A stretch of DNA of 64,000 bases from a phage: the sequence record PX880101.1; one strand, 5' to 3'. The translations under genes and the position numbers were made by a program. The notes below the pieces were generated by a model that saw only the letters and a program-made list of their open reading frames with translations, made no database searches and had not been told where the DNA came from. How positions within the stretch are numbered: position 1 is the stretch's first letter; each line of letters starts with the position of its first letter. Below, piece after piece: positions 18,021-45,868 of this stretch.

Positions 18021-18629
18021 AACATGAAATAATAACAATCGTTATTGTGTCGAAAGTGTATAAGGTGTCATAGTATGTCAGACAAGTTTTTCTCCTCTTT
18101 GTCAAGTGCTGCATGAAAATTTACAAACTGGTATGGTAGCATTTTTGCGGCCCTGTTTACATTCAGTTGTGTATGTATAACCCTTGTTGTGTGGGCGTTT
18201 AGACGTCTGGACGGTTGGAAGTCTACAGGTCAATATCTAATCTATTGGCTGCTAACTATATCCCACACAAATAGTAAGAAATACAATTGTTATGTGAGTA
18301 AACGGTAACTCATGTTATCAATCCCTGTATGGATCGCCAGTGGTGCGCATAATGGGTATTATGTTAAATTGCCCGTAATGATAACTATTCTCACAATGAT
18401 AGGTATTCTCATTCACTCCCACAAGATAGGTTGCAAATGTTGTGCCACTGTGTGAACGGCCTCACCTATTAATTTGCCTCACTGCCTCGATATTTGAGAA
18501 TTGTTATAAGAATGAGAAGTATTCCCATTTCGTCCGCCTGGCAGCACTCCAGTCGCTACCGCTCATGACAGGGCAGAACTGGGTCCATTCAGATATTTCT
18601 GGCTGACTCTTCAGGTCTGTGTGGGAAAA

Positions 18630-18810
18630 GCCAACCTCTCCGGCGGGGCAGGGGTAGGTCAATTAAAAAATTTACGTGGTGTATGAAGAGCCCTTCAGGT
18701 AAGGCATGTATTATGGGATGAAACACCCTTCAGGCAATGATATTTGTGGGTGGGATATTTGCTGGAAAGCCAGATATGACGGGACTCCTGGCGGGGCAGG
18801 GGTAGTACAG
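18630..18810. repeat. direct repeats (ggcggggcaggggtag x2; cccttcagg x2)
   Basis: Two ~17 bp units about 148 bp apart, plus a second repeated unit between them. Confidence 0.55.
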
Positions 18811-19500
18811 ACAGGGGAAATATGGTGGATGTAGTTGGGTGGATTGATCAGGCAGGTAGAGTATGGAATATGTTACAAGTATGTTAAATATGGAGGATGA
18901 ATATCTGTAGGATTTGTGTGTAAAATCAAAGACTTAAGTGGTGTTGTGGTATTTTCTATAAATAATTCAAGTTTAATAGGTAATATTTGTCTCTATCCGC
19001 TTTGTGTGGTAAACAAATTCAGATGGTGTTGGTTTACAAGTGTATACATAATATACAAATTAAAGATACAAGAAACCCCCCTCCCCCTTCGGCTACCATT
19101 CACCTTTTCCTCTGACTGGTACTTAAACACTTATTCAGACTCTTCAGGTTATCACCCATATATCATATGGCAGTGACTGGTGTCCTCCGGCCCCTCTTTC
19201 GTCACCCGTCCGCTTCGCCATGCTAATGCCATAGCCAACGGTTCGGTTGTTCACCCTGTTCACTCAGGTGTATCTCCATACCCCTTCAAACCGAAGAGAA
19301 CAGAAAACCCGAATTACTCGGTAAAAGAAAAGAGAAGAACTTAATTTTATCAGGATAGGCAAGAATGTCAAGGCATGACTGCTCACTAAACAAGCAAACA
19401 GTCATGTGTGGAAGGTAAGTGATTGTGGTGGTAGGAAATTTAGTTGAAAGATGTGTTATAGGTGCGCTTCCAGCACTTTAGCCGGGCAGCTAATTGTGTG

Positions 19501-30947: not shown

Positions 30948-31262
30948 CTACCAGGTTACTGTCAAGTAGGCAACCGTATTATTTTTCTCTGGGGAGATGC
31001 CAACAACATCTACCTGCAGACCTCCTGCCCTTAAATCTCCAACAATGTGCGGGAAGTAATCTGAGAGATGCGAGGGTAGATTTATCGAAAATCCGCACCC
31101 CAGAAAGCCTGCTAACGCTTTATTTTGTATCTCCCCTACAATCGCATCATAAATGGAGTTAAGCTCGTCAGGGAGCGTTACAGGACGTTTTAGCGCTAAC
31201 TGGTGTAATTTGTCCTTAGCACTCATTTTCATTTCAGGTCTACCTCTGGTGGTGCCAACCAC
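30948..31262 (-). CDS. hypothetical protein
   Basis: ORF. Confidence 0.45.
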   Translation of the reverse strand: MVGTTRGRPEMKMSAKDKLHQLALKRPVTLPDELNSIYDAIVGEIQNKALAGFLGCGFSINLPSHLSDYFPHIVGDLRAGGLQVDVVGISPEKNNTVAYLTVTW

Positions 31263-31762
31263 ATAAATGGCGGCAAGCCTAAACGGTTTTTCTTATCCCA
31301 CACAAAATATGCATATGCTTGCCCGTCAGTTCTGCCATTTGATTGAAAAGATGGACGCTTAGATATTGTGATCACAGTGGTAGGTGCATTATCAAGCCAC
31401 CATTCAAATCTGGCTTTGCTTTCCAGAAAATTAAGACGCAAAAGCATAATAACTACGTCAGCATCTTTCAACGCCTTGTCTACAAACTCACGAGCCAAAC
31501 TGTATGGTGGGTTGGTGATAATACAGTCAACATGGTTGTATTCTGTATTCAGATAGTCAACACCTTCTTGGATTTCTCCCCATGCAGATCCTAACGGCAT
31601 ACGGGAGTAGAACACACCTGAGGCACTATTCCTGCAAGGCTCTAAGTAGGTCCAGTCTTCTGGGAACGGAATAAGGTCATACAGCCCTTCTGCACACCAC
31701 TCCGGTGTCACATACTCATCGTAGGCGTTACGTTGTTCATCAGGTTTTCGAGCACAAGTCAT
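31229..31762 (-). CDS. putative small DNA N6-adenine methyltransferase
   Basis: NPPY tetrapeptide (IITNPPYSLAREF), the catalytic motif IV of amino-methyltransferases. Confidence 0.5.
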   Translation of the reverse strand: MTCARKPDEQRNAYDEYVTPEWCAEGLYDLIPFPEDWTYLEPCRNSASGVFYSRMPLGSAWGEIQEGVDYLNTEYNHVDCIITNPPYSLAREFVDKALKDADVVIMLLRLNFLESKARFEWWLDNAPTTVITISKRPSFQSNGRTDGQAYAYFVWDKKNRLGLPPFMWLAPPEVDLK

Positions 31763-31775
31763 GCAAATCTCCAGA

Positions 31776-31802
31776 TCATAAAAGCCCTCCGAAGAGGGCT
31801 TT
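31776..31802 (-). terminator. putative intrinsic terminator or attenuator on minus strand
   Basis: Hairpin agccctc-cgaa-gagggct with flanking T/A runs. Confidence 0.45.
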
Positions 31803-31813
31803 AGAATTAATGT

Positions 31814-32863
31814 TTAAGCTTCTTCGACAATCCCTGCACCCAGGATTTTTTCATTGAGCTCTTTTGCTGTTTTAATAATATTGTCCACCAGACGCTTGCG
31901 AGTCTTATCTTTTACCTTAACCTCTTCACCGCCGTTCAGGGTTGTCTTCAATTGGGACAGAATGTCTTGAAGTTCAACGACAGAGAATCGCTGCAGATCT
32001 TCTGAGGTAATCTCGCCTAAGGCAATCTTAACGGTCTCACCACTTTCCATCTGCAGGTTCAGGAACACAGTGTGAACATCACCTTTCGAACCACCCGCTT
32101 TTGCAGATTCAACAGCATGAACTAGCTCATCTAAAGAGGTGCACTGGTGAATCTCCGGAAGACCTGCTTCACCTAGCACACCTTCTTCATCACCTTTTGC
32201 CAAAAGCTTTTTAGGTTTTTGTCCGTTCTGGATGCGTTGTATGTTGCCTTCATCCAGAATGATAGCTCCAGTTCGAGCTGCCAGCTCCTCTCCGTCCAAC
32301 CACACTTCGCCACCAGCTGTGATGGATGCGATCTCATCTTCTGTCAGCACCCAACCGTAGTATTTTTCGATCAGGCGTTCGAAACGTTTTTTCCAGTAGC
32401 TGACCTGAGTATTCATGTTCACACCATTGCCATAAGTGCCGCCTTGATAGTAGTGGAACATAAACTCTGTGTCCGGAGCCACAGTGCGTTCTTTGCAACC
32501 CAGCCATAGGATTGTTCCAGCAGAGCAGCACATCCCTTCAGCATGTGCAACAACGCTTGCCTGAGACTCGCGGAATGCCTGTAGATAAGCCATTGCAATG
32601 TGCACGCAACCCCCAGGGCTATTGATGATCACACGAATGCTTTCTTCCGGCTGAGCCATACGGATCGTCTGCAGACGAGACATATGATCCTGCAGGTCCT
32701 CCAAATCGTCGATATAAAGAACGTGGTCAACAACAGGTGTTGGGTAGCTGTATGTTTCCATAATACCACCCGGCATACCAAACATTTTATTACTCATAGG
32801 TTCGAAACCGTTCTGTTTTTCTTTCATGCCGTGTACCATGGTGCTGCGAGGTGTTAAATTCAT
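31814..32863 (-). CDS. ClpP-family (S14) serine protease homolog with ~150 aa C-terminal extension
   Basis: INSPGG motif and GMCCSAG active-site-serine context typical of ClpP and prohead proteases; C-terminal region charged, predicted helical. Confidence 0.6.
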   Translation of the reverse strand: MNLTPRSTMVHGMKEKQNGFEPMSNKMFGMPGGIMETYSYPTPVVDHVLYIDDLEDLQDHMSRLQTIRMAQPEESIRVIINSPGGCVHIAMAYLQAFRESQASVVAHAEGMCCSAGTILWLGCKERTVAPDTEFMFHYYQGGTYGNGVNMNTQVSYWKKRFERLIEKYYGWVLTEDEIASITAGGEVWLDGEELAARTGAIILDEGNIQRIQNGQKPKKLLAKGDEEGVLGEAGLPEIHQCTSLDELVHAVESAKAGGSKGDVHTVFLNLQMESGETVKIALGEITSEDLQRFSVVELQDILSQLKTTLNGGEEVKVKDKTRKRLVDNIIKTAKELNEKILGAGIVEEA

Positions 32864-32923
32864 GAGAAATCCTTAATATTGGAAGTTGAAAGCTATTTAT
32901 TTAAACCTGATTCACATTTACCT

Positions 32924-33235
32924 TTATTTAGCAATCACTATGGAATACTTACGATTGTCAGAAGCATCACAACTCAATGATTGCCAGTCTACCACATACC
33001 ACGTATCATTGTCAACAATTACTTTATCGCCTGTTCTGTAGCAGATGCTGCTTTCAATAATTCGAGACTCGATAAAGAATCTGTGTCGGCGCTCACGTAG
33101 CAACGCTAAGTTGATTATGTTACCACCGCTGTCCTTGATCCACACATTCTTGGATCCTTTATTTGCCAAAATTGTCTCGCCGTTATAGACAAACAGGCAG
33201 TATATTTTATTCAGTTTCTCTTGTATTGTAGCCAT
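32924..33235 (-). CDS. hypothetical protein
   Basis: ORF. Confidence 0.45.
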   Translation of the reverse strand: MATIQEKLNKIYCLFVYNGETILANKGSKNVWIKDSGGNIINLALLRERRHRFFIESRIIESSICYRTGDKVIVDNDTWYVVDWQSLSCDASDNRKYSIVIAK

Positions 33236-33336
33236 ACTGTCCTTCTCTCTGTTTTGTCCGATAATAATATCTAAAGTTTACCTATTTGTCAACAACTGTT
33301 TTAGATATTTAAGGGTGGAATAACCACCCTTCTGTA

Positions 33337-34125
33337 TTACTCGGAAACAGGGGTCCAAATATGATTTGCACGATCCTCAATAAGATTGAGTGCGATCTGA
33401 CGACCCAACCCAGAACGAACGACATCGTCTGGACTATCAAAGCTGATCATTCCAACCTCAGGATCTGGATGACGAGTAAAGAAATCCGTCACCCATGCAA
33501 GGCCAGATTTACCAGGGATGTCACGTTGGCTATTATCACCCATAATTACAAGGGTGGCTTGATCAGAGATCCTTGTGATAATTGACAACATTTCTTCAGG
33601 GTTAGTTTGCTGTGCCTCGTCAATCAGGACAAAGCATCGCTCATCGAAACTACGACCACGAATGCTTTCAACTTCACAAATCTCGATACGGCTGTTCTGA
33701 CCGTCTCCCAGCATTGCGGCAAAAGCACCTTTGCCAACACGACGACAAATCGTGTCCATCATGCTTCGAAGATAGGGCCACAGTTTCTGCATTGCATTTC
33801 CAGGTTTAAATCCTGAAGTCTTTCCTGTCTGAACGTAAGGACGTGCAACAATAATCTTATCAATCTCGTTCTTACGCAGAAGATCACCTGCATATGCAGA
33901 TGCCATGAATGTCTTACCGGATCCAAACACACCGTTTACAATAATAATCTTACGTGACCCTAGATAATCAAGATACTTTTGCTGCTTCTTATTCATTGGT
34001 CGGAGAGCTGGAGCGGTGTGCTCTCTTTCGTCAGCAAATTTCTCAGCAGCCTTACGCAGGCGATCAGATTTGCGAGCCTCTCTAGCTTCATCACGCATGC
34101 GCTTTGTTTCTTTAGCTCGACCCAT
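33337..34125 (-). CDS. phoH: PhoH-like ATPase
   Basis: Walker A GVFGSGKTF, Walker B VLIDEAQ, overall PhoH-like arrangement. Confidence 0.8.
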   Translation of the reverse strand: MGRAKETKRMRDEAREARKSDRLRKAAEKFADEREHTAPALRPMNKKQQKYLDYLGSRKIIIVNGVFGSGKTFMASAYAGDLLRKNEIDKIIVARPYVQTGKTSGFKPGNAMQKLWPYLRSMMDTICRRVGKGAFAAMLGDGQNSRIEICEVESIRGRSFDERCFVLIDEAQQTNPEEMLSIITRISDQATLVIMGDNSQRDIPGKSGLAWVTDFFTRHPDPEVGMISFDSPDDVVRSGLGRQIALNLIEDRANHIWTPVSE

Positions 34126-34163
34126 GTTGGGACTCCTTTCAGATTGAGATGTGCCAAGTACTT

Positions 34164-34514
34164 TTACTGCAACAGTTTTTCAATAGCCGCTTCCATGCTG
34201 CTTGCAACAGCCTGAACTCGGATATTCATCTCTTCTTGGTGGATCAGCTCCTTAAGCTCTTTAATGGTAAATTCTTTAGAGAAACCTTCCACCATAATCT
34301 TGTGCAAGGCTTCTTGCGTGTCTACTTGCAAGAACTTTTCCAGTTTGTTGGCAGAGGCTTCTAAATCAGCCCGAATACGAGGGTCATCTGTGCGATTCAG
34401 CATTAGGCGTAAGCCATCAAGATTAGTAGAAATAGCATCTGCATGTTGAGTAACTAACCGTGGCAAAATGAGATCTACAAACTTATTAGCCAAATCGATA
34501 CGTTCTTGTGTCAC
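34164..34514 (-). CDS. hypothetical protein
   Basis: ORF. Confidence 0.45.
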   Translation of the reverse strand: MTQERIDLANKFVDLILPRLVTQHADAISTNLDGLRLMLNRTDDPRIRADLEASANKLEKFLQVDTQEALHKIMVEGFSKEFTIKELKELIHQEEMNIRVQAVASSMEAAIEKLLQ

Positions 34515-34686
34515 TGTTGCACCCCCTCTTCATCTTCATGATGTTTCTTTTCACGCTTGTGTTTTTTCTTAAGCTCAAGCGCAATCTCTTTCTTGTACGC
34601 CTTCTTCAAGGCTTTTTTAGCCATTTGGCACCTCCTCTGCTTTCATTACGGCAATTATAACCAACTCAACAAAGCTTTGTCAACAA

Positions 34687-35160
34687 CTAGTCTACCTGAA
34701 CCCAACCGCCTGATACTTTTTTAAACATTCTTTGGTTATCACTGCCTCGGAACGGTTTCTTGGTTGGTAAATCTTTTACATACTTACCGTCAATGATGAT
34801 ATCAGCCAGTTTAAGAACATCACTAGAGATATGGTCAAATGTGAACCCAGTATATACAAGAATAGTTTTCTTGTCACCAAATTTTTCCTTAATTTTCTCC
34901 ATCAGGCTAATAATATCTGGCTCATTATAGTATGCTAAGGGTTCTCCACCCAGTAGAGAGATACCGCACACAGACGGGTTATCTAAATCTGACAAGATTT
35001 TTTGCAAGTCTTCTTCAGTGAACTTCCTCCCCTTATCTTTTGACCAAAATGCCTGATTAAAGCAACCAGGGCAAGCGTGTGGGCACCCAGATACCCACAA
35101 GGCAGTTCTAATACCTGGTCCTTCGGTGTAAGATATTTCTGTGTATCCAGCAATGTTCAT
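34687..35160 (-). CDS. nrdG: anaerobic ribonucleotide reductase activating protein (radical SAM)
   Basis: Cys cluster GCPHACPGC near N-terminus, size ~157 aa, adjacent to nrdD. Confidence 0.8.
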   Translation of the reverse strand: MNIAGYTEISYTEGPGIRTALWVSGCPHACPGCFNQAFWSKDKGRKFTEEDLQKILSDLDNPSVCGISLLGGEPLAYYNEPDIISLMEKIKEKFGDKKTILVYTGFTFDHISSDVLKLADIIIDGKYVKDLPTKKPFRGSDNQRMFKKVSGGWVQVD

Positions 35161-35273
35161 AGATACTCCGCATCACATTTAGGGCAATGCCAAATAAAAT
35201 CGTCTAGTGCCTTGCACCAACGAAGATTACAACTACAGCCGCACTTGCAAATTTTATAAATACCTGATGACAT
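35157..35273 (-). CDS. small Cys-rich zinc-ribbon protein (38 codons) between nrdD and nrdG
   Basis: Hand translation MSSGIYKICKCGCSCNLRWCKALDDFIWHCPKCDAEYL; stop overlaps nrdG start (ATGA). Confidence 0.35.
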   Translation of the reverse strand: MSSGIYKICKCGCSCNLRWCKALDDFIWHCPKCDAEYL

Positions 35274-35336
35274 ACTGCACCTCCTAGCTCACTGTGTGTC
35301 AATAATATGCCACATCCTTGTGGCTTTTGTCAAGAA

Positions 35337-37460
35337 TCAGCAACCACAACTTCCGTAGTGCTTAACTCGCTCGATAACTTCCGCTTGCTTACCTTTATTG
35401 TAAGGACGGGAGTTAGGACTGGAAAGGTATCCAGACACACGTCGAATTACACTGATCGTTCCCTCTTCATGGTTTCCACACTCTGGGCATACAAAGCCTT
35501 TAGCTGTTGCACTGAACTCACCAGAGAAACCACACTTGAGACATTTATCCACAGGTTGGTTAATACCAAAATACATAATGTGTTTATACCCGAAGTCAAC
35601 AAGAGCCTCTAAAGCATCCAGGTTGTTTTTCAGGTTAGGTGTTTCTACGTATCCGATGTTGCCACCAGAGGAGATCATAGCAAAACCTTCCTCATACTCC
35701 CACTTATCAAAAGGAGAGCTATTTATCCATACTGGCTGATGGAAACTGTTGGTGAGATATTCATGCTCGTGCTTCAACACTTCCGGATATTCACGATCCA
35801 GACAGGTTGCAGCTTTATAGCATAGACTCTCAGAAGGAGTGCCGTACAAGCTAAATGCTAGTCTACTTTCCTTCTTGTATCGCTCACAAGCATCTCTCAT
35901 GTGCTGAAGGATTCCAAGAGCTAAAGCCTTGTCACCCTCTCTGCCCAAAATCTGACAGGTTTCATACACACCGATATACCCAATACTGATGGAAGCGTAC
36001 CCGTCATAGAAGAGTTTATCAATACTCTCTTCAGGATCCAGGCGAGCAAGAGCGCCTTCACACCACATGATGGGGTTCTGCCCTGCCTTTGTTCCTTTTA
36101 GACGATTAACCCTTACAAGGTGAGCCTCGTATGCAAGATCCAAGTATTCGTCAAGAACTGCAAAGAAATCAACACCTTCCGTCTTGGCTTTTGCCGCAAT
36201 CATTGGCAGGTTAAGGCTAACAACGCCTAAGTTAAATCTGCCAAGGTATTTCTCCTCGCCTGTTTCCAAGTCATTGTATTTGCTAAGAAAACTCCTGCAA
36301 CCCATGCTAGTTACTTTGCCATCTGTCGAGCCTGTCACTTTTCTATTTAGTGGTACAGATACGAAGTCAGGATAGATACGTTCTGCACAGCATTCCAGAG
36401 CTAATCGTTTCAAATCATAGTTAGGATCCCCAGGGTTCATGTTGACACCCTCTTCCAGGAAGAACAGCACTTTAGGGAACACAGGTGTGATACGTTCTTC
36501 ACCAAGACCCATTTTGTGGACTTTCAGGTAGTTTTTGGTAATCATTCTACCAAAGACCGAGGTATCCAGTCCTAAACTCAATGTGATGAATGGAGTTTGC
36601 CCGTTGACAGAAGTTAACGTGTTGATTTGATAGAGCAAAGTCTGCATGCTGTCAAATACGTCTTTATCTGTCATTTGCATTGCAACAGTTTCAGCATCCG
36701 GCAACCAATGTTCCTGGCAAAATTTAAGGTTCTTCTCATAGGTTGCTTCAGCATACTGTGCCAGATAATGATCAATATGGCTCATAGTCTGACCACCATA
36801 TTGAGCACTAGCTACCGCACTAGAGATTTGGCTAAGGATTGTTGTTGCAACCCCTATTGACTTCGGCTTACTGACATAGGCGTTACCAATGTTGAATCCG
36901 TTTTCCAACATATCTGGATAATTTACCAAACAACAGTTTGTTAACGGACTGATCAAGTAGTCAAGATCATGCACATGGATGAATCCTTTATTGTGCTCTT
37001 CGGAGACACGGTCTGGCAGGATCTGTGTTGATGCAAGGTGTTTGCTAAGAATACCTGCAAGCAGGTCGCGATGAGTGTGTACATGATTAGTAGGCTTATT
37101 TGCGTTTTCTTTTGTAAATTCATCACAAGTTCGATCCAAGAAGCCACTAATATCTGCAAGCAGTTTTCCACCTGCCTCTCTGTTATTATCTCTTGTCTGT
37201 CTATACTGGATGTATTCTCTGGCTGCACATTTTAAACCCATATCCATAAGAGCATCTTCAACAAGGATATGGATATTTTTTACAGAGATCGTGCACTGGT
37301 CGGTTGGTAGATTGTTAGCAACAACTTCATTAACCGCGCAGGCGATCCGGTAAGCTTCTTCTTCAGTATGTCCAGACTCAAGTAAGGCGGACTCTGCCGC
37401 CTTGATCACCTTAATTCCGTTATAGAACTCTTCTCTACCGTCCCGTTTTACAACTTTCAC
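35337..37460 (-). CDS. nrdD: anaerobic ribonucleoside-triphosphate reductase (class III)
   Basis: C-terminal glycyl-radical motif RRVSGYL, zinc ribbon CLKCG...CPECG, N-terminal ATP-cone, 707 aa. Confidence 0.9.
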   Translation of the reverse strand: MKVVKRDGREEFYNGIKVIKAAESALLESGHTEEEAYRIACAVNEVVANNLPTDQCTISVKNIHILVEDALMDMGLKCAAREYIQYRQTRDNNREAGGKLLADISGFLDRTCDEFTKENANKPTNHVHTHRDLLAGILSKHLASTQILPDRVSEEHNKGFIHVHDLDYLISPLTNCCLVNYPDMLENGFNIGNAYVSKPKSIGVATTILSQISSAVASAQYGGQTMSHIDHYLAQYAEATYEKNLKFCQEHWLPDAETVAMQMTDKDVFDSMQTLLYQINTLTSVNGQTPFITLSLGLDTSVFGRMITKNYLKVHKMGLGEERITPVFPKVLFFLEEGVNMNPGDPNYDLKRLALECCAERIYPDFVSVPLNRKVTGSTDGKVTSMGCRSFLSKYNDLETGEEKYLGRFNLGVVSLNLPMIAAKAKTEGVDFFAVLDEYLDLAYEAHLVRVNRLKGTKAGQNPIMWCEGALARLDPEESIDKLFYDGYASISIGYIGVYETCQILGREGDKALALGILQHMRDACERYKKESRLAFSLYGTPSESLCYKAATCLDREYPEVLKHEHEYLTNSFHQPVWINSSPFDKWEYEEGFAMISSGGNIGYVETPNLKNNLDALEALVDFGYKHIMYFGINQPVDKCLKCGFSGEFSATAKGFVCPECGNHEEGTISVIRRVSGYLSSPNSRPYNKGKQAEVIERVKHYGSCGC

Positions 37461-37735
37461 TTTTTCTCTCCAAAACCATTCTTAACAAAAGAGATGAAAT
37501 CGTCGGCACCGCCTATATGGACACTGTCAAGATCGCTTTCTAAGAAGATCTGCGGCAACGTTCTGGGGACAATTGGACTGCACTTCTCAATAAGCTCTTC
37601 TTTTGTGTAGCCCTCGCCAAGTGTCTTATATACAAAAGGCAGACCTTTGCTGATTGCAAATTCTTTTGCTCTGACACAATGTGGGCAGTTATCCTTACCG
37701 TAAATGATGATGAAAAAAGATTTTTCGCAGCTCAT
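37457..37735 (-). CDS. glutaredoxin / NrdH-like redoxin
   Basis: CPHC active site in thioredoxin-fold context (IIIYGKDNCPHCVRAK); overlaps nrdD start by 4 nt. Confidence 0.7.
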   Translation of the reverse strand: MSCEKSFFIIIYGKDNCPHCVRAKEFAISKGLPFVYKTLGEGYTKEELIEKCSPIVPRTLPQIFLESDLDSVHIGGADDFISFVKNGFGEKK

Positions 37736-37738
37736 ATA

Positions 37739-38827
37739 TTAAAACTCCCAAATTTCTTCTTCAGCGTCGTTAACAGTTGTGTTGACGCGGTAGTCAGTGT
37801 TCGACATTTCTTGGTTCGCCGTCTGTTGTAATGAAGGTTTCATCCACACCTGCATGAACGGTAGCGGGTCCTTTGTTGGCGGCACAAAGTCTTTGTCGAT
37901 GTCGTAGTAATCATAAATCGGTGAGCAGTTATAGTCAACCCACTCTTTAAGCAACGGTGAGTTAAGACCTATAATCGCTCTTCCTTCGCTGAAAATATAG
38001 TCACTCCAACCGTACTCTTTGGTTCGTACTTCATCAAAAATCTCTTTTAACTCCCCCTTTATCTCAAGGAAGCTTTTCTCCCATGCGGGATCATTAAGCA
38101 AGATATCAATGATGGCAAAATCACCTTTCGAATGTAGCATTTCGTCAAGCATGATTTTTTGAACAAGCTGCGCCACCTGAACAAAGATACCCTGTTCAGC
38201 TACTGCGAAAGTGCATGCAAAACTTGCAATAAACTCAATACTTTCCAGAGCTAAAAGCGCAAAAAGCGCTCTAAGAATGCATTTCCGCACAATATCTTCT
38301 TCAACACTAGAAGGATCCAAGCGGTATTTTGCACCAATAACCTCAAGCTCTTGCATGTATTTGACAATAACGCCGGATCTGCTCAGAACGTTTTGGTTTT
38401 CCTGAATCTCTTCTATAATCTCACGGGCATTGGGGAGGCATTGTCTAACAATCTCTGAGTAAGTTAGTGCGTGAAGAACTTCAATCTCTGACTGTTTCAT
38501 CAATAGAGTGAAAAGCTCACTATTAGTGATGAATGGTGAAAAGAGGCAGATGATCGATCTTGCCGCAACGCTATCAGCCTCCCATTGCCACATCAAGGTC
38601 TGCACCATCACGTCATAAGTTGACTTTGAGCATGTTACAAAATCTGAAATAGATTGCGACAAATCCACTTCATCCTCTGCCCAATCTTGCTCTTTTTGTT
38701 TTTTGTATAGTTCAAACAGTTGTGGATATTTTTTGTTGATAGAGTCGTACATACCCATTTGCTGTCCCAGAAACAGCGGATAGTCACCAGTTTTATGAGC
38801 GGTGTTCTCAGCATTAAATACAGCCAT
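37739..38827 (-). CDS. nrdB: ribonucleotide reductase class Ia small subunit
   Basis: Ferritin-like R2 pattern with conserved E/H residues; start set at ATG after agaggtag RBS rather than the upstream M that would overlap nrdA. Confidence 0.85.
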   Translation of the reverse strand: MAVFNAENTAHKTGDYPLFLGQQMGMYDSINKKYPQLFELYKKQKEQDWAEDEVDLSQSISDFVTCSKSTYDVMVQTLMWQWEADSVAARSIICLFSPFITNSELFTLLMKQSEIEVLHALTYSEIVRQCLPNAREIIEEIQENQNVLSRSGVIVKYMQELEVIGAKYRLDPSSVEEDIVRKCILRALFALLALESIEFIASFACTFAVAEQGIFVQVAQLVQKIMLDEMLHSKGDFAIIDILLNDPAWEKSFLEIKGELKEIFDEVRTKEYGWSDYIFSEGRAIIGLNSPLLKEWVDYNCSPIYDYYDIDKDFVPPTKDPLPFMQVWMKPSLQQTANQEMSNTDYRVNTTVNDAEEEIWEF

Positions 38828-38844
38828 TATTCTACCTCTAAAAT

Positions 38845-38858
38845 GGGGCCGAAGCCCC
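38845..38858 (-). promoter_or_regulatory. intergenic hairpin between nrdA stop and nrdB start
   Basis: ggggccgaagcccc perfect stem-loop. Confidence 0.4.
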
Positions 38859-38865
38859 TTTAAAA

Positions 38866-41181
38866 TTATAGTGCACAGCTTTCGCAATACGGATCTTCAA
38901 CTGAACTATCTGCAATCAAAGGATAGTTCTTTCTGGTTTCATCTTCAGCCTGTTTCTTGGCATGAAGTTCCTCTGCCAAGGAGTCACCAGCACCAACCCT
39001 AGAGTTTAAATAATACCATGTCTTCATCCCGAATTTAGTGGCACGGATAAGGTACCCTAACTGCTCCTTCATTGAAATTTTACCATCTTTCAACTTGGTG
39101 TAGTCTATGTATAAATCCGCGCTGATTGCCTGACCTGTGAATTTTTGAATCACGGCATACATATCGATCATGTCGTTAGTATCAACGTCCCAAGCCGAGG
39201 TGTAATACTCTTTCAACTCATCATAGTCAGGAACGATAAACAGCACCTGCCCTTGTGGCGACTTTTTAAAGATAATGTGCTCACGGACAGGATAAACCCC
39301 GTTAGTGGTGTTTGTTGCCAGCGAAGAGCTTTCATTAGGCATATATGCTTCAAGAACGCTATTACGTAGCCCACCATTCTCAATGATTTCTTTACGTAAC
39401 CCTTCCCAATCCTGTTTAAGAGAAGGATCTTTCACCACGCTATCGACCTCTTTGTTATAGGTGTCGATTGGTAACCAACCTTCTGGATATTTTGTTTTAT
39501 GCATCCACTCGCAGACACCACGCTCTTTTGCCAACCGTAAACTTGCCTTATGCAAGCTGTAGCTGTGAAGTTCTGCAAGATCGTGAACGAGCTGTTTACT
39601 TTCAGGAGACCCGTAAGTAACCTTGTGGCTGGCAATAAAATGTGCAACATTGGTAAGGCCAACCCCGATGGATCTGCGTTTTTTAACTGTGCTTTCCATA
39701 TTTTCATACGGATATGTCATGATTTCCATAACATTGTCAATCATAAGCACCGTATAGTATGCAACATCCTCATACTCCTCTGGAGTAACCCTCCCAGCTA
39801 CAAGAGATGACAGGAAGCACAATGCAACCTCTCCATCATCAGCATCGTACTTGAAGATATTACGCATATCTGAATAGCCTTTTGTCGGGAGGGCTATTTC
39901 TGCACACAGGTTGCTTGAATAGATCACATCTTTAAAAGGTGTATGTCTATTCATCTCATCTGTCCAGTATACGTACAGCCTTCCCACCTCAGTGCGCTGC
40001 GTGATCAGTTCAACAGCAAGATCTCTAGCTCGGATCCATGTTTTAGGAATACTGTCATCTTTAGCAATACGATCAACCTCTGCATCAAACTCCTCCATAG
40101 ACATGGTGAAGATACCCTCATGCAGTTGAGGCGCGTGCTTATAAGAAACAAGCATCCAATCTAAATTCTTAGCCACACGGTTGATAAACGACCTATTAAT
40201 ACCGATGGAGTAGTCCATGGTGTTGATTCTTTTTGAAGCAACAGTCATAGGGTTTCTCAAACGGATTAGCTCATCAATCTGCGGGTCCAGTGCAAGGAAT
40301 GATACTGTTGCAGAACCACCACGTGATTGTTGTCTGTTCTCCTTAACCCCAGCATCAATACCTCGATAATATGGAATCTTACCCATATGTTTAATAGTGT
40401 TACCACGAACACCATCGCCTGCAGATCTTGAGGATAAGTAGTAGCCGATACCTGCTTGGTTAACCGTCATTGTGTACGCAACTTCACGTGCCACACCAAT
40501 AGATTTTGCTGTATCGTCAGCTTTTATTACACAACAAGATGCATACCCTGTCTTACCTGTGCGCAGCCCGTTTAAGTACGGTGTTGGGGCATTGATCTTT
40601 AAGTCGGACAGATAAGTGTATAATTTTACAACATCGTTGATACGACGTTCTTTCGGCATATTCTTCATGACAGCCATTGCTATCCCCATAAACATCATCT
40701 GGGGAGATTCAAACAAGGTGTCTTTAAGAGTATCCTTGATCCCGTATTTGTCGCGAAACTGTTTAAGGACTGCATAGCCATAACCGAGATCTTTACTGTG
40801 GTCAATAACAGCGTCTAAAGTGTTTAGCTCGGTAAAGCTATAACCCATATCCTCCCAATAACCTTTCTCAACCATGTCATTGTAAAATGATGGTAAGGAA
40901 GGGATCTTTGTAAACCCTCCAAAAGCCTCTTTATAGATCTGACCAATAAGAACACGACCAGCCATACGGGAATGTGCTTCGTCTTTACGGCTAACACAAG
41001 AGTCTATAATAGCTTGGTTAACTTCTTTGGTTGTACATCCATCATACAACCGCTTGTAGGCATCCAGTGCAATATGTGACCAATTGCCGTTACCATCGTC
41101 ACCGAAAATAGCTGCCTTATTTAAACGTTCTGGATCGAATGCCACTTCACATCCGTTGCTTTTAATTACCTTGGTGATCAA
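38866..41181 (-). CDS. nrdA: ribonucleotide reductase class Ia large subunit
   Basis: N-terminal ATP-cone, active-site NLCAEIALPT motif, 771 aa. Confidence 0.9.
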   Translation of the reverse strand: MITKVIKSNGCEVAFDPERLNKAAIFGDDGNGNWSHIALDAYKRLYDGCTTKEVNQAIIDSCVSRKDEAHSRMAGRVLIGQIYKEAFGGFTKIPSLPSFYNDMVEKGYWEDMGYSFTELNTLDAVIDHSKDLGYGYAVLKQFRDKYGIKDTLKDTLFESPQMMFMGIAMAVMKNMPKERRINDVVKLYTYLSDLKINAPTPYLNGLRTGKTGYASCCVIKADDTAKSIGVAREVAYTMTVNQAGIGYYLSSRSAGDGVRGNTIKHMGKIPYYRGIDAGVKENRQQSRGGSATVSFLALDPQIDELIRLRNPMTVASKRINTMDYSIGINRSFINRVAKNLDWMLVSYKHAPQLHEGIFTMSMEEFDAEVDRIAKDDSIPKTWIRARDLAVELITQRTEVGRLYVYWTDEMNRHTPFKDVIYSSNLCAEIALPTKGYSDMRNIFKYDADDGEVALCFLSSLVAGRVTPEEYEDVAYYTVLMIDNVMEIMTYPYENMESTVKKRRSIGVGLTNVAHFIASHKVTYGSPESKQLVHDLAELHSYSLHKASLRLAKERGVCEWMHKTKYPEGWLPIDTYNKEVDSVVKDPSLKQDWEGLRKEIIENGGLRNSVLEAYMPNESSSLATNTTNGVYPVREHIIFKKSPQGQVLFIVPDYDELKEYYTSAWDVDTNDMIDMYAVIQKFTGQAISADLYIDYTKLKDGKISMKEQLGYLIRATKFGMKTWYYLNSRVGAGDSLAEELHAKKQAEDETRKNYPLIADSSVEDPYCESCAL

Positions 41182-41486
41182 TTTGCTTCCTCCACTTCAC
41201 TAACGTATTTATCAAGGCAGGTATCAGTATCTTGCTGGATAAAAGTATCCTCTTCTACAGAGATATTTATAATTTTACCTGTATACTCGTCATAATAGAC
41301 ATCATCATACATTTTAATATCGTTTGTCAGGCCATTGAACCAAAGCCAACCAACATACTCTGCCCGACTTGCAAAACCAAGATCCTTCCACTTGGAGTTA
41401 TGACTCATCTTCACCACCTTAGCTTTCAATACCGAATAATTTTTCCAGGCGATGCAGATCTTCAAAATTGAAAGGTTCATCAACAA
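41178..41486 (-). CDS. hypothetical protein
   Basis: ORF; 4 nt overlap with nrdA. Confidence 0.4.
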   Translation of the reverse strand: MLMNLSILKICIAWKNYSVLKAKVVKMSHNSKWKDLGFASRAEYVGWLWFNGLTNDIKMYDDVYYDEYTGKIINISVEEDTFIQQDTDTCLDKYVSEVEEAN

Positions 41487-41919
41487 TATGAATATCTTCA
41501 GCCTTTTCAGATTGTTTTGTATACTTTCTTACATTAACACGATCCTCTACAGGGATATCATACGGGAGATCTTGAACAAGCATTGCCTCACCAGGTGCTT
41601 TATCTACATCTAAAATATCTACACCGTTATACATTTGTGGGTATCTAAAGTCTGCACGCATGACACCAGCAAATACATCTGCCTTTCGATAATGTGTTGG
41701 CTTATTTTTGCATCGAACGTTTTTTCCACGAAGAACATCAATACTTTTTAAATCAAACCCTACGGCAAAGAGTGCAGCTCGGAGACCGTTTCGTGTGCGA
41801 ACGTTAAACCCGGGGACGGTAGATAGAAAATCTAAAGTAACTGAAATAAATGTCTTTTTAGGAATCATAACATTACTCATATCTGTCTCCATTTCTGGCT
41901 CACCAACAAAGTGAGCCAT
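41419..41919 (-). CDS. hypothetical protein
   Basis: ORF. Confidence 0.45.
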   Translation of the reverse strand: MAHFVGEPEMETDMSNVMIPKKTFISVTLDFLSTVPGFNVRTRNGLRAALFAVGFDLKSIDVLRGKNVRCKNKPTHYRKADVFAGVMRADFRYPQMYNGVDILDVDKAPGEAMLVQDLPYDIPVEDRVNVRKYTKQSEKAEDIHIVDEPFNFEDLHRLEKLFGIES

Positions 41920-41978
41920 TATTATAGATTATCTAATACTATTAGTCAACACAAAAGTTACCTATCGCTGTGATAGGA

Positions 41979-42962
41979 TTAACCTTTCACGAAGTGGTTA
42001 TTAAGCAGTTGTCTGTGCTGAACCCACCCACAAAAGTTGGCAGACCAGAATTTACCATCACGGTCTTGATGGGTTACACCTTCCTGCCAAGTACTGATGT
42101 CTTGTGTGATTTCACATGAAGACAGGTAGTAGTTTAAACGTTCCATTGCGTTATCGTGATCCATAGGTGTTGCCTGGTGCTCGTAAGGGCTTGCATGAAT
42201 ACGATCCCCACCAATCAATTTTTTAGCCACACTATCTGCCTTTTCAAACGTGCTGTCAATATTTCGATAAGATACTTGTGCACAGCAACTAGCACTGATA
42301 GACAGAGCTTCTTTAGTATCGAGAATGCAGAGCTTTCCTTCTGTGTCACGTACAGCGTAGTTAAACTCTCCGTCCAAATAAACGTGCTCTACATATGGGG
42401 TGTGCCATTGACCCGGTTTAAGGATTTCAGGAGTGCTATTCTCAAGAGCCTCCCACATACAATTAGCTAACATCTGAATCGTAGGATCCGCATCGTGCCA
42501 GCAACGGAGGTGGAAAAAATTATTCCACTCGGTGCTTGTTACAACTGTTTTCATGCGCTGGAACGGCTCCACTAAGCGGTTACATACTTGCTTATGGTAA
42601 CCAGCAAGGGCGAACTTCTCTGCATGCCAAGCGGCGTTTTTTGCAGCTTCTTTCCAAAACTCTTCAGGAGTTAGCTCCATGTCAGTGTACTCTACACGGA
42701 TCTTTTGATCGTGTTCCCCACCATCTTCCATTCCTCGCTTATTTACACCGAAGCGAACTGGCATTGCCGGATTCTCCACAATCTGTTGCAGCATCTTGCC
42801 GACAGGTACTGCACGGGAAGACATGGCGTTTCGGCTGAACACTCGGTGCGTCATAAGCTCTGAGTGAATAATTCGAGGGTACTCTAGTTCAAAAGTGGTG
42901 ATACGCTTACCTTTCTCGGAAATGCTGTCAGCAATAATCTTTGCAGTGCACAGTTTTAGCAT
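41979..42962 (-). CDS. putative flavin-dependent thymidylate synthase (ThyX-like, divergent)
   Basis: THRVFSRNAMSS fits the ThyX RHR-x7-S signature with T in place of the first R; longer than typical ThyX. Confidence 0.4.
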   Translation of the reverse strand: MLKLCTAKIIADSISEKGKRITTFELEYPRIIHSELMTHRVFSRNAMSSRAVPVGKMLQQIVENPAMPVRFGVNKRGMEDGGEHDQKIRVEYTDMELTPEEFWKEAAKNAAWHAEKFALAGYHKQVCNRLVEPFQRMKTVVTSTEWNNFFHLRCWHDADPTIQMLANCMWEALENSTPEILKPGQWHTPYVEHVYLDGEFNYAVRDTEGKLCILDTKEALSISASCCAQVSYRNIDSTFEKADSVAKKLIGGDRIHASPYEHQATPMDHDNAMERLNYYLSSCEITQDISTWQEGVTHQDRDGKFWSANFCGWVQHRQLLNNHFVKG

Positions 42963-43162
42963 TATTTAGCTCTCCTTGTTTTAATTTTGGAAATTTCGTC
43001 TGGGTTTATGTTGGCCTTAAATGCAAGGTATCTGTTGAACATGTCAGAGCACATATCTTGGGTGATCCTAGAGGCATACACTAGCTTACCTCCTAGATCA
43101 TACACCTCTAGCCAGTCACCGTATCTGACTACAGGATCGCCACCTTTAGAACATCTGCCCAT
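42962..43162 (-). CDS. hypothetical small protein
   Basis: ORF. Confidence 0.4.
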   Translation of the reverse strand: MGRCSKGGDPVVRYGDWLEVYDLGGKLVYASRITQDMCSDMFNRYLAFKANINPDEISKIKTRRAK

Positions 43163-43163
43163 T

Positions 43164-43757
43164 TCAAATACCTTCTAAAAATTTTCCTATTTTATACCAG
43201 CTATTAGCGGTATAGTCAACACTGACCTTTAACTCCTCGAATTGCTCATAAGGCGTATCTTTTAGGATTTTAATAACTTCAGGTCGTGAAGCGAATTGGT
43301 TCAGGTATTCATGCCTGTCGTCAATTATAACATCTACAGCCACATTCCCTTTGAAATGTGTGGCGTAGAAGCCGTGGCCCTGGGTGTGATCGTCCAGATC
43401 CATAAAATCACTGGTCCAACGCTTTAAGAACCTTGATTTAGATGCAAGGTGACCTTTCTTGCATACCGAGATAAATGCAAGCTTGTGACCACGAGCCACC
43501 AAATCTTTCATAACCTCAATAGCCCCCTCTTCAGGCTTAAGGAAGTCGTAGAGGAACGGATCACTCCAGAAATCAAAAGGTCCTATGATGTTTTCTTTGG
43601 GACGATCAGGCCAATACTTTGACAGATCGTAATACATTAGCCCATTAGAAGGTTTAGCCACTGTCTTACTGGCTGGACCATACAAACGCTCCAACCACTC
43701 CCACCATGCTGTTCCTGAATCTACCAGTGTCAGATCTACATCAATTCCGATTAACAT
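43164..43757 (-). CDS. HAD-superfamily 5'(3')-deoxyribonucleotidase-like protein
   Basis: N-terminal DxDxT motif (IGIDVDLTLVD). Confidence 0.55.
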   Translation of the reverse strand: MLIGIDVDLTLVDSGTAWWEWLERLYGPASKTVAKPSNGLMYYDLSKYWPDRPKENIIGPFDFWSDPFLYDFLKPEEGAIEVMKDLVARGHKLAFISVCKKGHLASKSRFLKRWTSDFMDLDDHTQGHGFYATHFKGNVAVDVIIDDRHEYLNQFASRPEVIKILKDTPYEQFEELKVSVDYTANSWYKIGKFLEGI

Positions 43758-44368
43758 TCTTCTTGGGCCTCTTTAGCATCAATATACTTGCACACAATCT
43801 CCGATGCACACTCCCAAGGTGCACCTTCAGGGTTTACAACATCAAACTCAACCCCTTTTATTCCGTTCTTTTCCAGACTTAGATAGGTTCTGGAATCATT
43901 TCCCCAGTCATATCCTACACGGTGAATACGGAACAACAACAGATCTCCACCTGTGCTGTATGCGTACTCGCTAAGGCATGCCAGCTCCTCTTTGAATCCC
44001 CCATCGGAGTAAACAATAACCCCTTTACCTTCAGGGAAATCTTTCTTCAAAGATGCGACTGCGGCTTTACCGAAAGCATCTTCACCAAAGATAGGTTTAA
44101 TCAGATTTTCACTACAATGGATCATCCATTCTCGCGGAGAAACATGCTTGCCGTCTATCATTAAGAAAGGGCAAGGCTCTTCTTTGTAGTGGCGGTCATA
44201 AAGTGCATTCCAGAGTTGAGGAGTTACACCAGCTGCCTTAATTGCCACGCTGAAGAGCATCTCCTTAACCTCACGGTGGTGTGAGTTAGGAATAGCTTCC
44301 AACAAGAGATCTGCAATGTGATCCTTACCACTGCTGGGTGGGGCGTTAAGAACAATAATATCCATCAA
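43751..44368 (-). CDS. P-loop nucleotide (dNMP) kinase-like protein
   Basis: Walker A NAPPSSGKD at N-terminus; located within the nucleotide metabolism cluster. Confidence 0.5.
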   Translation of the reverse strand: MMDIIVLNAPPSSGKDHIADLLLEAIPNSHHREVKEMLFSVAIKAAGVTPQLWNALYDRHYKEEPCPFLMIDGKHVSPREWMIHCSENLIKPIFGEDAFGKAAVASLKKDFPEGKGVIVYSDGGFKEELACLSEYAYSTGGDLLLFRIHRVGYDWGNDSRTYLSLEKNGIKGVEFDVVNPEGAPWECASEIVCKYIDAKEAQEEC

Positions 44369-44568
44369 AAACCTCCGTGGTATTCTTCAACTGCATCAAT
44401 AATACTTTTACACTTATCTACCAGCTCGTTAGCCACTACAGCATCGTCTTCCCAAACAGCTTCCTCAATCTGATCAAGCAATGATCGCATCTTACCCATC
44501 ATTTCTGGGATAAAGTTTTCTGAAAAGCTGTCTGGAATTGTTAACTTTAGTGTCATTGCGGTCTCCAA
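44365..44568 (-). CDS. hypothetical small protein
   Basis: ORF. Confidence 0.4.
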   Translation of the reverse strand: METAMTLKLTIPDSFSENFIPEMMGKMRSLLDQIEEAVWEDDAVVANELVDKCKSIIDAVEEYHGGF

Positions 44569-44583
44569 TCATACTATGCGTTA

Positions 44584-45042
44584 TTAGAAGTTTGTTTTTA
44601 CACGTCCCTTTTCATCAACTTCGTTGTTAGCTAAAAGCGTTACAAAGTCTGTGAAACGGACATGAAGAACTCTTTTCTTGTCAAGGTATCCTAAAGCCAC
44701 CCCTGAGAAATTTAGCATCAAAGGGGCTAAAGAAGCTCTAGCACTGAAATGCTGTTGTTCTACCCTTCCAACACCCTTAGTATAGGATGGGTTGAGATTG
44801 TAAGTTCTGAATCCAAGTTTTGTTGGAGCTTTAGAATTAAAAACAACTTTGTAGCGTTTCTTACTCAACTTATGCTCCAGGATAAGCATTCCCTTATCGC
44901 CCTTGATAAGTTGAAAATCTGTAAAGTGCTCTTTTAAGACGAAAGGTAGTGCCAGTCCCATCGCCTGCCCCCTTTGTACCGCTGTCTCACCAAAAGCTTT
45001 TGCATCAGTAAGTTCTTTGGTCAAGTCTATGCTTTTGATCAT
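44584..45042 (-). CDS. hypothetical protein
   Basis: ORF. Confidence 0.45.
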   Translation of the reverse strand: MIKSIDLTKELTDAKAFGETAVQRGQAMGLALPFVLKEHFTDFQLIKGDKGMLILEHKLSKKRYKVVFNSKAPTKLGFRTYNLNPSYTKGVGRVEQQHFSARASLAPLMLNFSGVALGYLDKKRVLHVRFTDFVTLLANNEVDEKGRVKTNF

Positions 45043-45853
45043 ACCTAGTCTCCAAAATGTATTGTAGTTCTTTCTTACCTATACTCTTCATTCCGGCAGT
45101 CTTACCTGCTTCTTCTTGAAAGGAAGAATAGCATTCAGCAAACACTCTGTCAACACCGTCAACTAAAGATTTTATGAAATATGTTGATTCTTCAGATTTT
45201 GGGTCATCCTCCCCCAATACTTTTCCAGCATTATACCCAACACGTCTTACACAGAAGTCGTAGTCATCTGGAGTGCTAAAAGAAAATAACCTATTCTCCC
45301 CAATCTCTACAGGATCCCTATTGCACTCCTTTTTCTCCCAAATTTGGAAAACACATGGCACGTCATAAGGTTTGCCATTAAGTAAAAACGAATTCTTAGG
45401 GCACCTTTCGCTGTAGACAAGGTGCATCGACATGTCCAGTTTGTTTGCAAAAAATATTTTTTCAAATGTCCGTGGCAAGATGAAGGCTATAGCCCCTCCA
45501 AGCTCTAGCAATGATGCACAATGGTTGAAGAATTTGCAAGCTAAAGATGAATTCTTGCCAAATGGTGGGTTACCTATGAAGACATCTGCCTTGGGATGAA
45601 CCTCCAAGAAGTTTGCCTGAATGCACGGTGTTGGTCCTTCAAATTCAGGATCTGGTACTAAATCGTACGACAGTATCTCTGAAAATAGTTTTGAAAAAGA
45701 ACCCCTTCCAGCAGAAGGCTCAACGTATGCACAATTCCCATACTTATCTTTTACTTTACCAACAAGATATTCTGCATACTCAGGGTTTGTGTAATATTTG
45801 TCGTTGGACTCTTTCTTGCTCAAAGTGCCTCCAAAAGGAAAAGGGAGGCGCAA
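45005..45853 (-). CDS. DNA N6-adenine methyltransferase
   Basis: SAM-binding-like EPSAGRGSF and catalytic NPPF (FIGNPPFGKN). Confidence 0.6.
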   Translation of the reverse strand: MRLPFPFGGTLSKKESNDKYYTNPEYAEYLVGKVKDKYGNCAYVEPSAGRGSFSKLFSEILSYDLVPDPEFEGPTPCIQANFLEVHPKADVFIGNPPFGKNSSLACKFFNHCASLLELGGAIAFILPRTFEKIFFANKLDMSMHLVYSERCPKNSFLLNGKPYDVPCVFQIWEKKECNRDPVEIGENRLFSFSTPDDYDFCVRRVGYNAGKVLGEDDPKSEESTYFIKSLVDGVDRVFAECYSSFQEEAGKTAGMKSIGKKELQYILETRYDQKHRLDQRTY

Positions 45854-45868
45854 GCCTCCCTATAATTG

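Follow-up and report, generated by a model that had tools for sequence, protein, structure and literature searches.

The 64,000-nucleotide stretch of phage sequence record PX880101.1 analysed here (hereafter the window) carries two predicted amino-methyltransferase genes, A and B, and a small gene, P, that overlaps the end of B. The window is part of the genome of a Vequintavirus, an rV5-like lytic E. coli myovirus, a group whose genomes are about 136 kb in size. A stretch of about 17 kb around both methyltransferase genes matches Escherichia phage ECO111 5-P at 99.5% identity and rV5-type phages, including slur16 and BASEL phages such as Bas53, at 98–99%. A and B lie within a minus-strand block of nucleotide-metabolism and replication genes. 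Genes in and around this block encode a ClpP-like protease, PhoH, NrdG, NrdD, glutaredoxin, NrdB, NrdA and ThyX, as well as a 5'-nucleotidase-like protein, a deoxynucleoside monophosphate (dNMP) kinase-like protein and a DnaQ-like exonuclease. Three genes form the subject of this analysis:

31229–31762, minus strand: methyltransferase A, 177 amino acids; by motifs and profiles a minimal gamma-class, S-adenosylmethionine-dependent enzyme of N6-adenine type

45005–45823, minus strand: methyltransferase B, 272 amino acids, with a TTG start after GGAGG (45828–45832); a gamma-class type II enzyme of N6-adenine type

44584–45042, minus strand: partner P, 152 amino acids, annotated as 'hypothetical' (phrog_9938); a putative diverged homolog of PD-(D/E)XK type II restriction endonucleases

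B and P probably constitute a captured type II restriction-modification (R-M) cassette that has been disarmed, with A an orphan core enzyme and any protection of phage DNA narrow at most. What appears to be new here is P, the likely endonuclease-derived partner of B, which on sequence evidence would make the locus a variant type II R-M cassette and not a pair of simple orphans. The methyltransferase assignment of A and B is already known and has been in public records since rV5, whose record (NC_011041) annotates a 'putative DNA N6-adenine methyltransferase'. The Bas53 record labels both A and B 'putative N6 adenine methyltransferase', and slur16 RefSeq labels them 'DNA methyltransferase' and 'SAM-dependent methyltransferase'. 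Olsen et al. (bioRxiv 10.1101/2020.01.19.911818) record methyltransferases in all vequintaviruses. No mention of such enzymes is made in the rV5 genome paper (PMC3606486), whose one reported digest is with XbaI. Our literature search found no experimental work on either enzyme. More than 180 phage records at present list P simply as 'hypothetical protein'.

Both methyltransferases carry the full set of gamma-class motifs, with motif X ahead of I–IV. In A these are DEYVTP (X), LEPCRNSASG (I), WGEI (II, with E60), DYL (III) and TNPPYS (IV), followed by RPSF and then TD..YAYFVW, so that cofactor and catalytic motifs are all intact; in B they are DKYYT (X), EPSAGRGSF (I), SYDL (II, with D54), ANFL (III) and GNPPFG (IV). 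We aligned homologs at about 35–70% identity, 31 sequences for A and 30 for B. Motifs X, I (EPxxGxG), the motif II acid, III and NPPY/NPPF are invariant or nearly so in both alignments, NPPY being present in 31 of 31 A-family and NPPF in 30 of 30 B-family members. Among PHROG profiles, A matches phrog_799 'DNA methyltransferase' (5.5e-67) and B matches phrog_5172 (2.5e-129). AlphaFold models of A and B (predicted local distance difference test scores of 88.5 and 92.2) both have the Rossmann-like class I methyltransferase fold. An initial annotation of the window had proposed that both open reading frames (ORFs) encode amino-methyltransferases; motifs, PHROG and PDB profiles, structure and genomic context all agree with it.

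The same annotation left the chemistry at N6-adenine or N4-cytosine. Of these, N6-adenine is favoured by the NPPY and NPPF motifs and by the closest structures, which are N6-adenine enzymes. N4-cytosine specificity is less likely, as the motif reads NPP(Y/F) and not SPP(Y/F) and the close structural neighbours are all adenine enzymes. On motif knowledge A and B are thus most likely both N6-adenine methyltransferases. They share motif order X, I–IV (NPPY/F) and the Rossmann core with M.TaqI, M.BseCI, CamA and the methyltransferase part of MmeI, at an identity to M.TaqI-type enzymes of just 14–20%. No close PDB relative of A, B or either P-type family described below was found by sequence; profile hits were marginal for A and B, and none was meaningful for the P-type families. 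A Foldseek search of viral structures gave no enzyme whose specificity is known.

B aligns from end to end with type II DNA methyltransferase models. Its match to PADLOC MTase_II PDLC03255 (1.1e-33) pairs residues 8–253 with profile positions 2–249 of 269, and all B relatives tested match the same model group at 1e-33 to 8e-74. Structurally, DNA methyltransferases of the M.TaqI type superimpose on 227–253 B residues, C-terminal domain included, and RNA methyltransferases on about 150 only. That C-terminal domain spans about 100 amino acids and aligns with the recognition domains of TaqI, BseCI, CamA and MmeI, although it is much smaller than TaqI's. There is a good case for DNA as the substrate of B, made up of the full-length PADLOC match, the models matched by its relatives and the pairing of those relatives with type II endonucleases.

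The distribution of B-type genes is broad. Many occur in giant-virus metagenome-assembled contigs (loci L059–L125, IMG/VR contigs named GVMAG), several of them with intact endonucleases of the P2 type described below. Many B homologs at 40–50% identity, for instance P0129 and P0133, carry precomputed matches to PF26055 (Mtase_EDM2); through these matches B would be related to the plant EDM2-type domain, at the level of the domain family only. By sequence, the B family spans phages, giant viruses, bacteria and eukaryote-type domains.

B-type enzymes serve elsewhere as one half of an intact cassette. A scan of viral contigs yielded 565 B relatives, of which we kept the best 80 loci. In 18 of these 80, an ORF of 148–173 amino acids abuts the B homolog, either on the same strand, at its upstream or its downstream side, or convergent with it from downstream. 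These ORFs, family P2, carry KDGR..SHFiE, (Y/H)D(H/F)(I/V)D, Y(D/E)xK and PSxMxGxGR, a textbook PD-(D/E)XK signature, and all 14 members that we aligned match PADLOC REase_II PDLC03550, the best at 7.5e-13. Because P2 genes sit next to B homologs and match endonuclease models, B-type enzymes are the modification half of genuine type II R-M systems. Chlorovirus R-M systems are the classic viral example of such cassettes.

P resembles these endonucleases in profile but has lost their catalytic residues. Aligned by hhalign, the P-type family (P1, 11 sequences) and the divergent P2 family match with a probability of 95.4% and an E-value of 1.8e-8 over 102 columns; in control comparisons, the P1 profile matched two methyltransferase alignments at 8.6% and 0.1%. 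Separately, a P2 hidden Markov model (HMM) matches a P1 member at 8e-4. The mapping of the catalytic residues is identical in hhalign and in two joint MAFFT alignments:

Helix Glu: Glu in 12 of 14 P2 members; Pro in 10 of 11 members of the P clade (otherwise Tyr); Pro33 in the window P

Beta-2 Asp: Asp in 13 of 14 P2 members; hydrophobic or Ser in 9 of 11 of the P clade; Leu53 in the window P

Beta-3 acid: Asp or Glu in 13 of 14 P2 members; Lys or Arg in 11 of 11 of the P clade; Lys65 in the window P

Beta-3 Lys: Lys in 13 of 14 P2 members; never Lys in the P clade (hydrophobic or His); Val67 in the window P

P, S, G and R of PSxxxGxGR: invariant in P2; invariant in the P clade bar one member with Ala for Ser; PSYTKGVGR in the window P

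No acidic residue is invariant among the 11 sequences of the P clade. Judged as a complete type II system, the locus therefore has the adjacent endonuclease-homologous gene, P, and lacks the intact PD-(D/E)XK signature. The surroundings of B and P gave no direct nuclease-family match in Pfam, PHROGs, NCBIfam or PADLOC, and the nucleases annotated in the rest of the syntenic region serve replication, recombination or homing. The initial annotation had seen no nuclease. That is right insofar as no recognisable active nuclease lies beside A or B, and it overlooked P, which the profile comparison identifies as a diverged type II endonuclease homolog.

Other candidate active sites and relatives did not bear inspection. 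A motif picked by eye in P, D42-x13-E56-x-K58 with helix E19, was rejected: K58, E19 and D42 are unconserved in Phapecoctavirus and metagenomic homologs, and the profile alignment places the true equivalents elsewhere, where they are substituted. P compared with ORFs flanking cellular B homologs (the 199-amino-acid ORF of Poseidonibacter and the neighbours at locus L005) gave nothing significant. The Poseidonibacter ORF itself has a weak REase_II match (6e-4), and a 262-amino-acid ORF of Mycoplasmopsis shows a PD..ExK string by eye and has no PADLOC match. The P2 endonucleases nearest the disarmed clade are themselves off consensus: that at L049 has Q-x-K, that at L050 has E-x-R and no helix Glu, and that at L065 has Asp instead of the helix Glu. 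Judging by their sequences, these three may be intermediates toward loss of activity.

Conserved linkage and selection tie P to B. P overlaps the 3' end of B by 38 nucleotides and has its own ribosome-binding site, GGAG at 45050–45053, with a 7-nucleotide spacer. It is 98–100% conserved within Vequintavirus. A Phapecoctavirus homolog with 30% identity adjoins the B homolog on its upstream side, and that pair lies between primase/helicase and DNA polymerase I. Two metagenomic phage lineages likewise have the order P then B; more divergent rV5-like contigs have B then P, with the overlap kept and a different upstream neighbour. In all, B and P occur together in at least five phage lineages. Within the best 80 of the 565 viral loci, four lineages have a P-type ORF directly beside B. 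A neighbour-joining tree of B proteins groups the four P-linked lineages as one clade whose successive outgroups are P2-linked. This nesting fits a single loss of catalytic residues in a virus-borne cassette. Against relatives 80–84% identical, the ratio of nonsynonymous to synonymous substitution rates is 0.04–0.07 for P and 0.04–0.06 for B, values which indicate that both are under strong purifying selection and that P is not decaying.

Since it belongs to a conserved two-gene cassette with P, B is not a free-standing orphan. The description of A and B as two orphans consequently survives for A, which has no recurrent neighbour family, and not for B, with its conserved partner of apparent endonuclease descent. 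The locus thereby resembles virus-borne type II R-M systems (MTase_II PDLC03255/03256/03274 with REase_II PDLC03550): B matches over its full length, P is homologous to the endonuclease family, and the two genes are adjacent and overlapping, like the 18 intact cassettes in viral contigs. Unlike those cassettes, P lacks the E-D-(D/E)xK residues and any direct endonuclease-model match, yet it is under selection.

A is a catalytic core with little else. The core takes up 144 of its 177 residues, and a separate target-recognition domain, present in M.TaqI-type enzymes, is absent. In hhalign A matches B at 98% (E 2.3e-13), the whole of A mapping onto B residues 1–169, so that A is effectively B's core minus the C-terminal domain. 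Its profile matches PDB sequences of M.TaqI (1.2e-5), ErmC' (5e-5) and type I M subunits; its match to PADLOC MTase_II is 1e-3 only, short of full length, and to a different model from that of B. The initial annotation called A unusually small. That is true beside typical type II enzymes; for its own family A is of ordinary size, the 309 homologs found ranging from 157 to 226 amino acids, and the distantly related PF05869 Dam model has 169 positions. About a third of the family reaches some 226 amino acids through a basic, RKRRK-rich C-terminal tail, which the window A does not have.

Members of the A family come nearly all from phages or from prophage modules for replication and recombination. 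Cellular homologs adjoin genes for a DEAD/ResIII helicase, a PD-(D/E)XK protein, a DnaC-like loader and a DnaD-like initiator, as well as RusA, primase, integrase and another DNA methylase, in prophage-like modules; the order of ClpP-like and methyltransferase genes in the window is kept in distant phages. Pfam matches within the family are to DNA-adenine families only: EcoRI_methylase in 10 of 31 members, Dam in 8 of 31 and Eco57I in 8 of 31. The best match of any member to PF05869 is near full length and sub-threshold (25.1 bits, 1.6e-5). Small phage Dam enzymes (PF05869, TIGR01712) are like A in their size of about 170 amino acids, their phage and prophage distribution and their place in replication modules, and they share the N-terminal D-x-(Y/W)-x-TP, the NPPY and the downstream R-x-S/K-F. 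DNA as the substrate of A rests on the Pfam families, the prophage modules and the synteny with ClpP, evidence that is circumstantial but consistent.

No neighbour family recurs around A across 24 cellular and several phage loci, and none of its neighbours in the window matches a nuclease in Pfam, PHROGs, NCBIfam or PADLOC. The adjoining 94-amino-acid ORF was rejected as a conserved partner of A: it has no family match and shows no relationship to the ORF that follows an A homolog in a related phage contig. By these criteria A is a true orphan methyltransferase. In one prophage (loci L035/L036, 8519–8899), a 126-amino-acid PDDEXK_15 protein lies 3' of an A homolog with a 1-nucleotide overlap.

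Two simpler accounts of B and P can be weighed against a disarmed cassette. One takes A and B as two independent orphan anti-restriction methyltransferases and P as an unrelated gene whose adjacency is inherited gene order. Public annotation, in which P is hypothetical and both methyltransferases are solitary, is in keeping with it, as are the failure of P to match a nuclease model directly and the lack of a partner for most viral B homologs; phage orphan methyltransferases derived from R-M systems are, moreover, common. We consider it very unlikely all the same, given that P matches the endonuclease family at 95.4% (E 1.8e-8) against controls of 8.6% and 0.1%, that P1 and P2 have PSxxxGxGR in common with identical spacing, that B and P remain adjacent even where their order is reversed and their neighbours differ, across lineages with B proteins only 39–55% identical, and that the P1-linked B clade is nested among P2-linked clades. 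The other account holds that B and P are still an active R-M system, in which P cuts unmethylated DNA of the host or a competing phage by a rearranged active site and B protects the phage genome, an arrangement like that of chlorovirus R-M systems. PD-(D/E)XK enzymes tolerate migrated catalytic residues, and P retains semi-conserved acids (Glu38; Glu56 or Asp) with invariant Lys89 and Arg93. The strong purifying selection on P would also suit an active enzyme, and so would the intact P2 partners that are common in viral contigs, giant-virus metagenome-assembled genomes included. The substitutions make this improbable: among the 11 P1 sequences, 10 carry Pro in place of the helix Glu, and all have Lys or Arg for the beta-3 acid, a reversal of charge; none keeps the beta-3 Lys, and no acidic residue is invariant.

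Several points tell against the picture of a disarmed cassette beside an orphan core enzyme. The link between P and endonucleases consists, at the sequence level, of one profile–profile match and synteny, P having no direct match to a nuclease model and no PDB sequence match. The register of the beta-2 Asp is uncertain, and the conserved acid three residues on (Glu56 or Asp) may mark a non-canonical active site. The neighbour-joining tree of B proteins carries no bootstrap, and about 57 of the best 80 viral B homologs have no detectable partner. Neither A nor B reaches any curated Pfam or NCBIfam threshold, those of EcoRI_methylase, Eco57I and N6_Mtase (PF02384) included. A scores 20.0 against a cut-off of 26.4 for PF13651 (EcoRI_methylase), and its scores of 19.2 against 28.1 for PF05869 (Dam) and 16.1 against 97.05 for TIGR01712 place it outside the small phage Dam enzymes; B scores 15.5 bits against 25.3 for Eco57I (PF07669). 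With curated models hit only below threshold, annotation of the two genes required independent support. Residue 71 of B, in motif III, is Asn (ANFL) where about 90% of the family has the Asp of DFL; 2 of the 29 other aligned B homologs also have Asn there. Finally, a literature search found no methylome or biochemical data for rV5-like phages, and the methyl transfer activity, base and site of A and B are what we infer.

The likeliest course of events would give each of the three proteins a distinct part. A would most likely add N6-methyl groups to adenines of phage DNA during replication, and B would methylate adenine at one short specific DNA site set by its TaqI-like domain. P would descend from the PD-(D/E)XK endonuclease with which B-type methyltransferases are paired in other viruses. 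Within the rV5/phAPEC8 clade its catalytic residues would have been replaced, with similarity across the fold and PSxxxGxGR kept, and the adjacency of B and P would have held through changes of order and neighbours under purifying selection on both. P would then fold like its parent and bind DNA, probably at B's site, but would not cut by the canonical mechanism. Candidate roles for such a protein are regulation of B or help with its specificity, occlusion of sites, and interference with a homologous nuclease.

A bolder proposal, which we hold tentatively and think rather doubtful, is that P is a domesticated, catalytically dead restriction endonuclease kept with its methyltransferase for a new purpose in several large E. 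coli phage groups. It could bind DNA sequence-specifically and shield or mark cognate sites on new phage DNA. It could equally be a poison subunit that heterodimerises with a homologous endonuclease of the host or of a rival phage, or it could work with methyltransferase B in specificity or regulation. Each of these roles, if true, would be a previously undescribed reuse of an R-M cassette by a phage.

The purpose of methylation is a separate question. The initial annotation suggested self-protection of phage DNA against host restriction, and published phenotypes weaken that suggestion. Maffei et al. 2021 (PMC8594841) challenged BASEL vequintaviruses with type I, II and III systems and described Vequintavirinae as 'exceptionally susceptible' to R-M, seemingly lacking 'any effective protection'. 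This sensitivity rules out broad or non-specific methylation; what it leaves is protection of a narrow, site-specific kind, or a part in replication or regulation. Self-protection across many sites is thus unlikely, and protection of phage DNA, if there is any, would be narrow and confined to particular sites outside those tested. Palindrome statistics of the window were rejected as a guide to the target sites, being not diagnostic: GATC (357 sites in the 64 kb, an observed-to-expected ratio of 1.07), TCGA, TGCA and AGCT show no avoidance, and the depleted palindromes are CTAG, GTAC and ACGT.

Two further alternatives concern what the methyltransferases do. They, and chiefly A, might serve replication, packaging or gene regulation, for example through Dam-like full methylation of fast-replicating DNA, a possibility worth entertaining though on balance unlikely. 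The great sensitivity of Vequintavirinae to every R-M type tested speaks for it, as do the replication modules that house A-family genes, the constant position of A in this phage group beside the ClpP-like protease and nucleotide-metabolism genes, its distant relationship to the small phage Dam family PF05869, and the abundance of unavoided GATC. On the other side, host Dam alone also predicts that GATC is not avoided, and the BASEL panel represents a handful of R-M specificities, which leaves room for site-specific protection. Alternatively, one or both enzymes might methylate RNA, at an adenine or other amino group of rRNA, tRNA or mRNA. A, lacking a DNA-recognition domain, is the likelier candidate of the two, although RNA as its substrate is itself improbable. 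NPPY is common to RNA and protein amino-methyltransferases; the best structural matches include METTL5, PH1948, ErmC' and KsgA/DIMT1; the A profile matches ErmC' at 5e-5 and the B profile weakly matches PDB sequences of Ta1320 and METTL5; some B homologs are named 'predicted RNA methylase' by JGI; and the phage carries its own tRNA genes. With METTL5, PH1948, Ta1320 and the Erm/KsgA enzymes, though, only the core of about 150 residues aligns, and a TRMT112-type partner is absent here; genomic context and PADLOC matches point to DNA instead. The match of B to type II DNA methyltransferase models is full-length, its relatives are paired with restriction enzymes, and its C-terminal domain aligns only with recognition domains of DNA methyltransferases. 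The A family matches only DNA-adenine families in Pfam and sits in prophage DNA replication and recombination modules, and A is homologous to B along its entire length. We accordingly place little credence in RNA methylation by these enzymes.

The methyltransferases alone matter little, having long been annotated in a field where orphan phage enzymes are commonplace. rV5-like phages, on the other hand, are leading candidates for biocontrol and therapy of E. coli O157 and are unusually vulnerable to restriction, which makes it worth knowing what A and B modify and why protection fails. B and P would add a concrete case of a virus repurposing a defence module, with the nuclease catalytically stripped yet selected in several phage genera. 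A, at 177 amino acids, offers a compact model for target choice without a recognition domain.

Three smaller features border the methyltransferase genes:

30948–31232, minus strand: ORF of 94 amino acids (phrog_12158), immediate neighbour of A, overlapping its stop by 4 nucleotides

31783–31800, minus strand: hairpin AGCCCTC-TTCG-GAGGGCT followed by TTTTAT, between the ClpP-like gene and A, read directly from the sequence

45842–45861, minus strand: terminator-like hairpin AGGGAGGC-TTGC-GCCTCCCT followed by TTTCCTTTTG, 3' of the DnaQ-like exonuclease gene

The ORF gave no match in Pfam, NCBIfam or PADLOC. The hairpin upstream of A was not scored as a terminator by the terminator scan, and its status as one is uncertain; 3' of it come GGAG, 7 nucleotides and the ATG of A. 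The hairpin upstream of B has 8 pairs, 6 of them G-C, and a T-rich tail, and its loop contains the TTG at 45853 from which B had been taken to begin. That position is a mechanical first TTG inside the loop of a terminator-like hairpin. The true TTG start, at 45823, lies four bases after GGAGG, where homologs begin MSKK, and gives the 272 amino acids of the public annotation.

Downstream of B and P, 43164–44368 on the minus strand encodes a dNMP-kinase-like protein (phrog_139) and an NT5C-type 5'-nucleotidase-like protein. nrdD (35337–37460, minus strand) is intact and encodes 707 amino acids; slur16 and several other vequintaviruses have it interrupted by an inserted HNH homing endonuclease gene, and the megablast match there is in two pieces.

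At the junction of the plus- and minus-strand gene blocks, a gene-poor stretch of about 2.5 kb (about 17000–19500) has no ORF longer than 86 amino acids, and its counterpart in Bas53 (91000–93521) is without annotation. It holds an AT-rich (34–37% GC) cluster of short direct repeats, recurring ATAGTTGCC(T/C)TG motifs and a perfect 18-nucleotide inverted repeat (17674–17691 / 17808–17825). This stretch could be an origin or regulatory region.

A cluster at 60345–61157 on the plus strand comprises seven tRNA genes (Arg-TCT, Tyr, Ser-TGA, Thr, Met, Pro). Part of the cluster is a 99-nucleotide tRNA-like gene (60814–60912) to which ARAGORN gives a four-base anticodon and no amino acid; its Rfam score is 35.5 bits only, and the Bas53 equivalent is labelled tRNA-Lys. 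Elsewhere in its syntenic genome, Bas53 has an annotated ribosome hibernation factor, sirtuin-domain protein, RNA ligase and polynucleotide kinase.

Some database records related to the window appear under other names. About 21 GenBank 'Campylobacter phage' records (for example MG065635) are about 99% identical to the E. coli phage of the window, and a 137.5-kb 'E. coli plasmid' in PLSDB, CP057073.1, carries B at 98% identity and is as large as an rV5-like genome. All of them are probably mislabelled or contaminating phage genomes.

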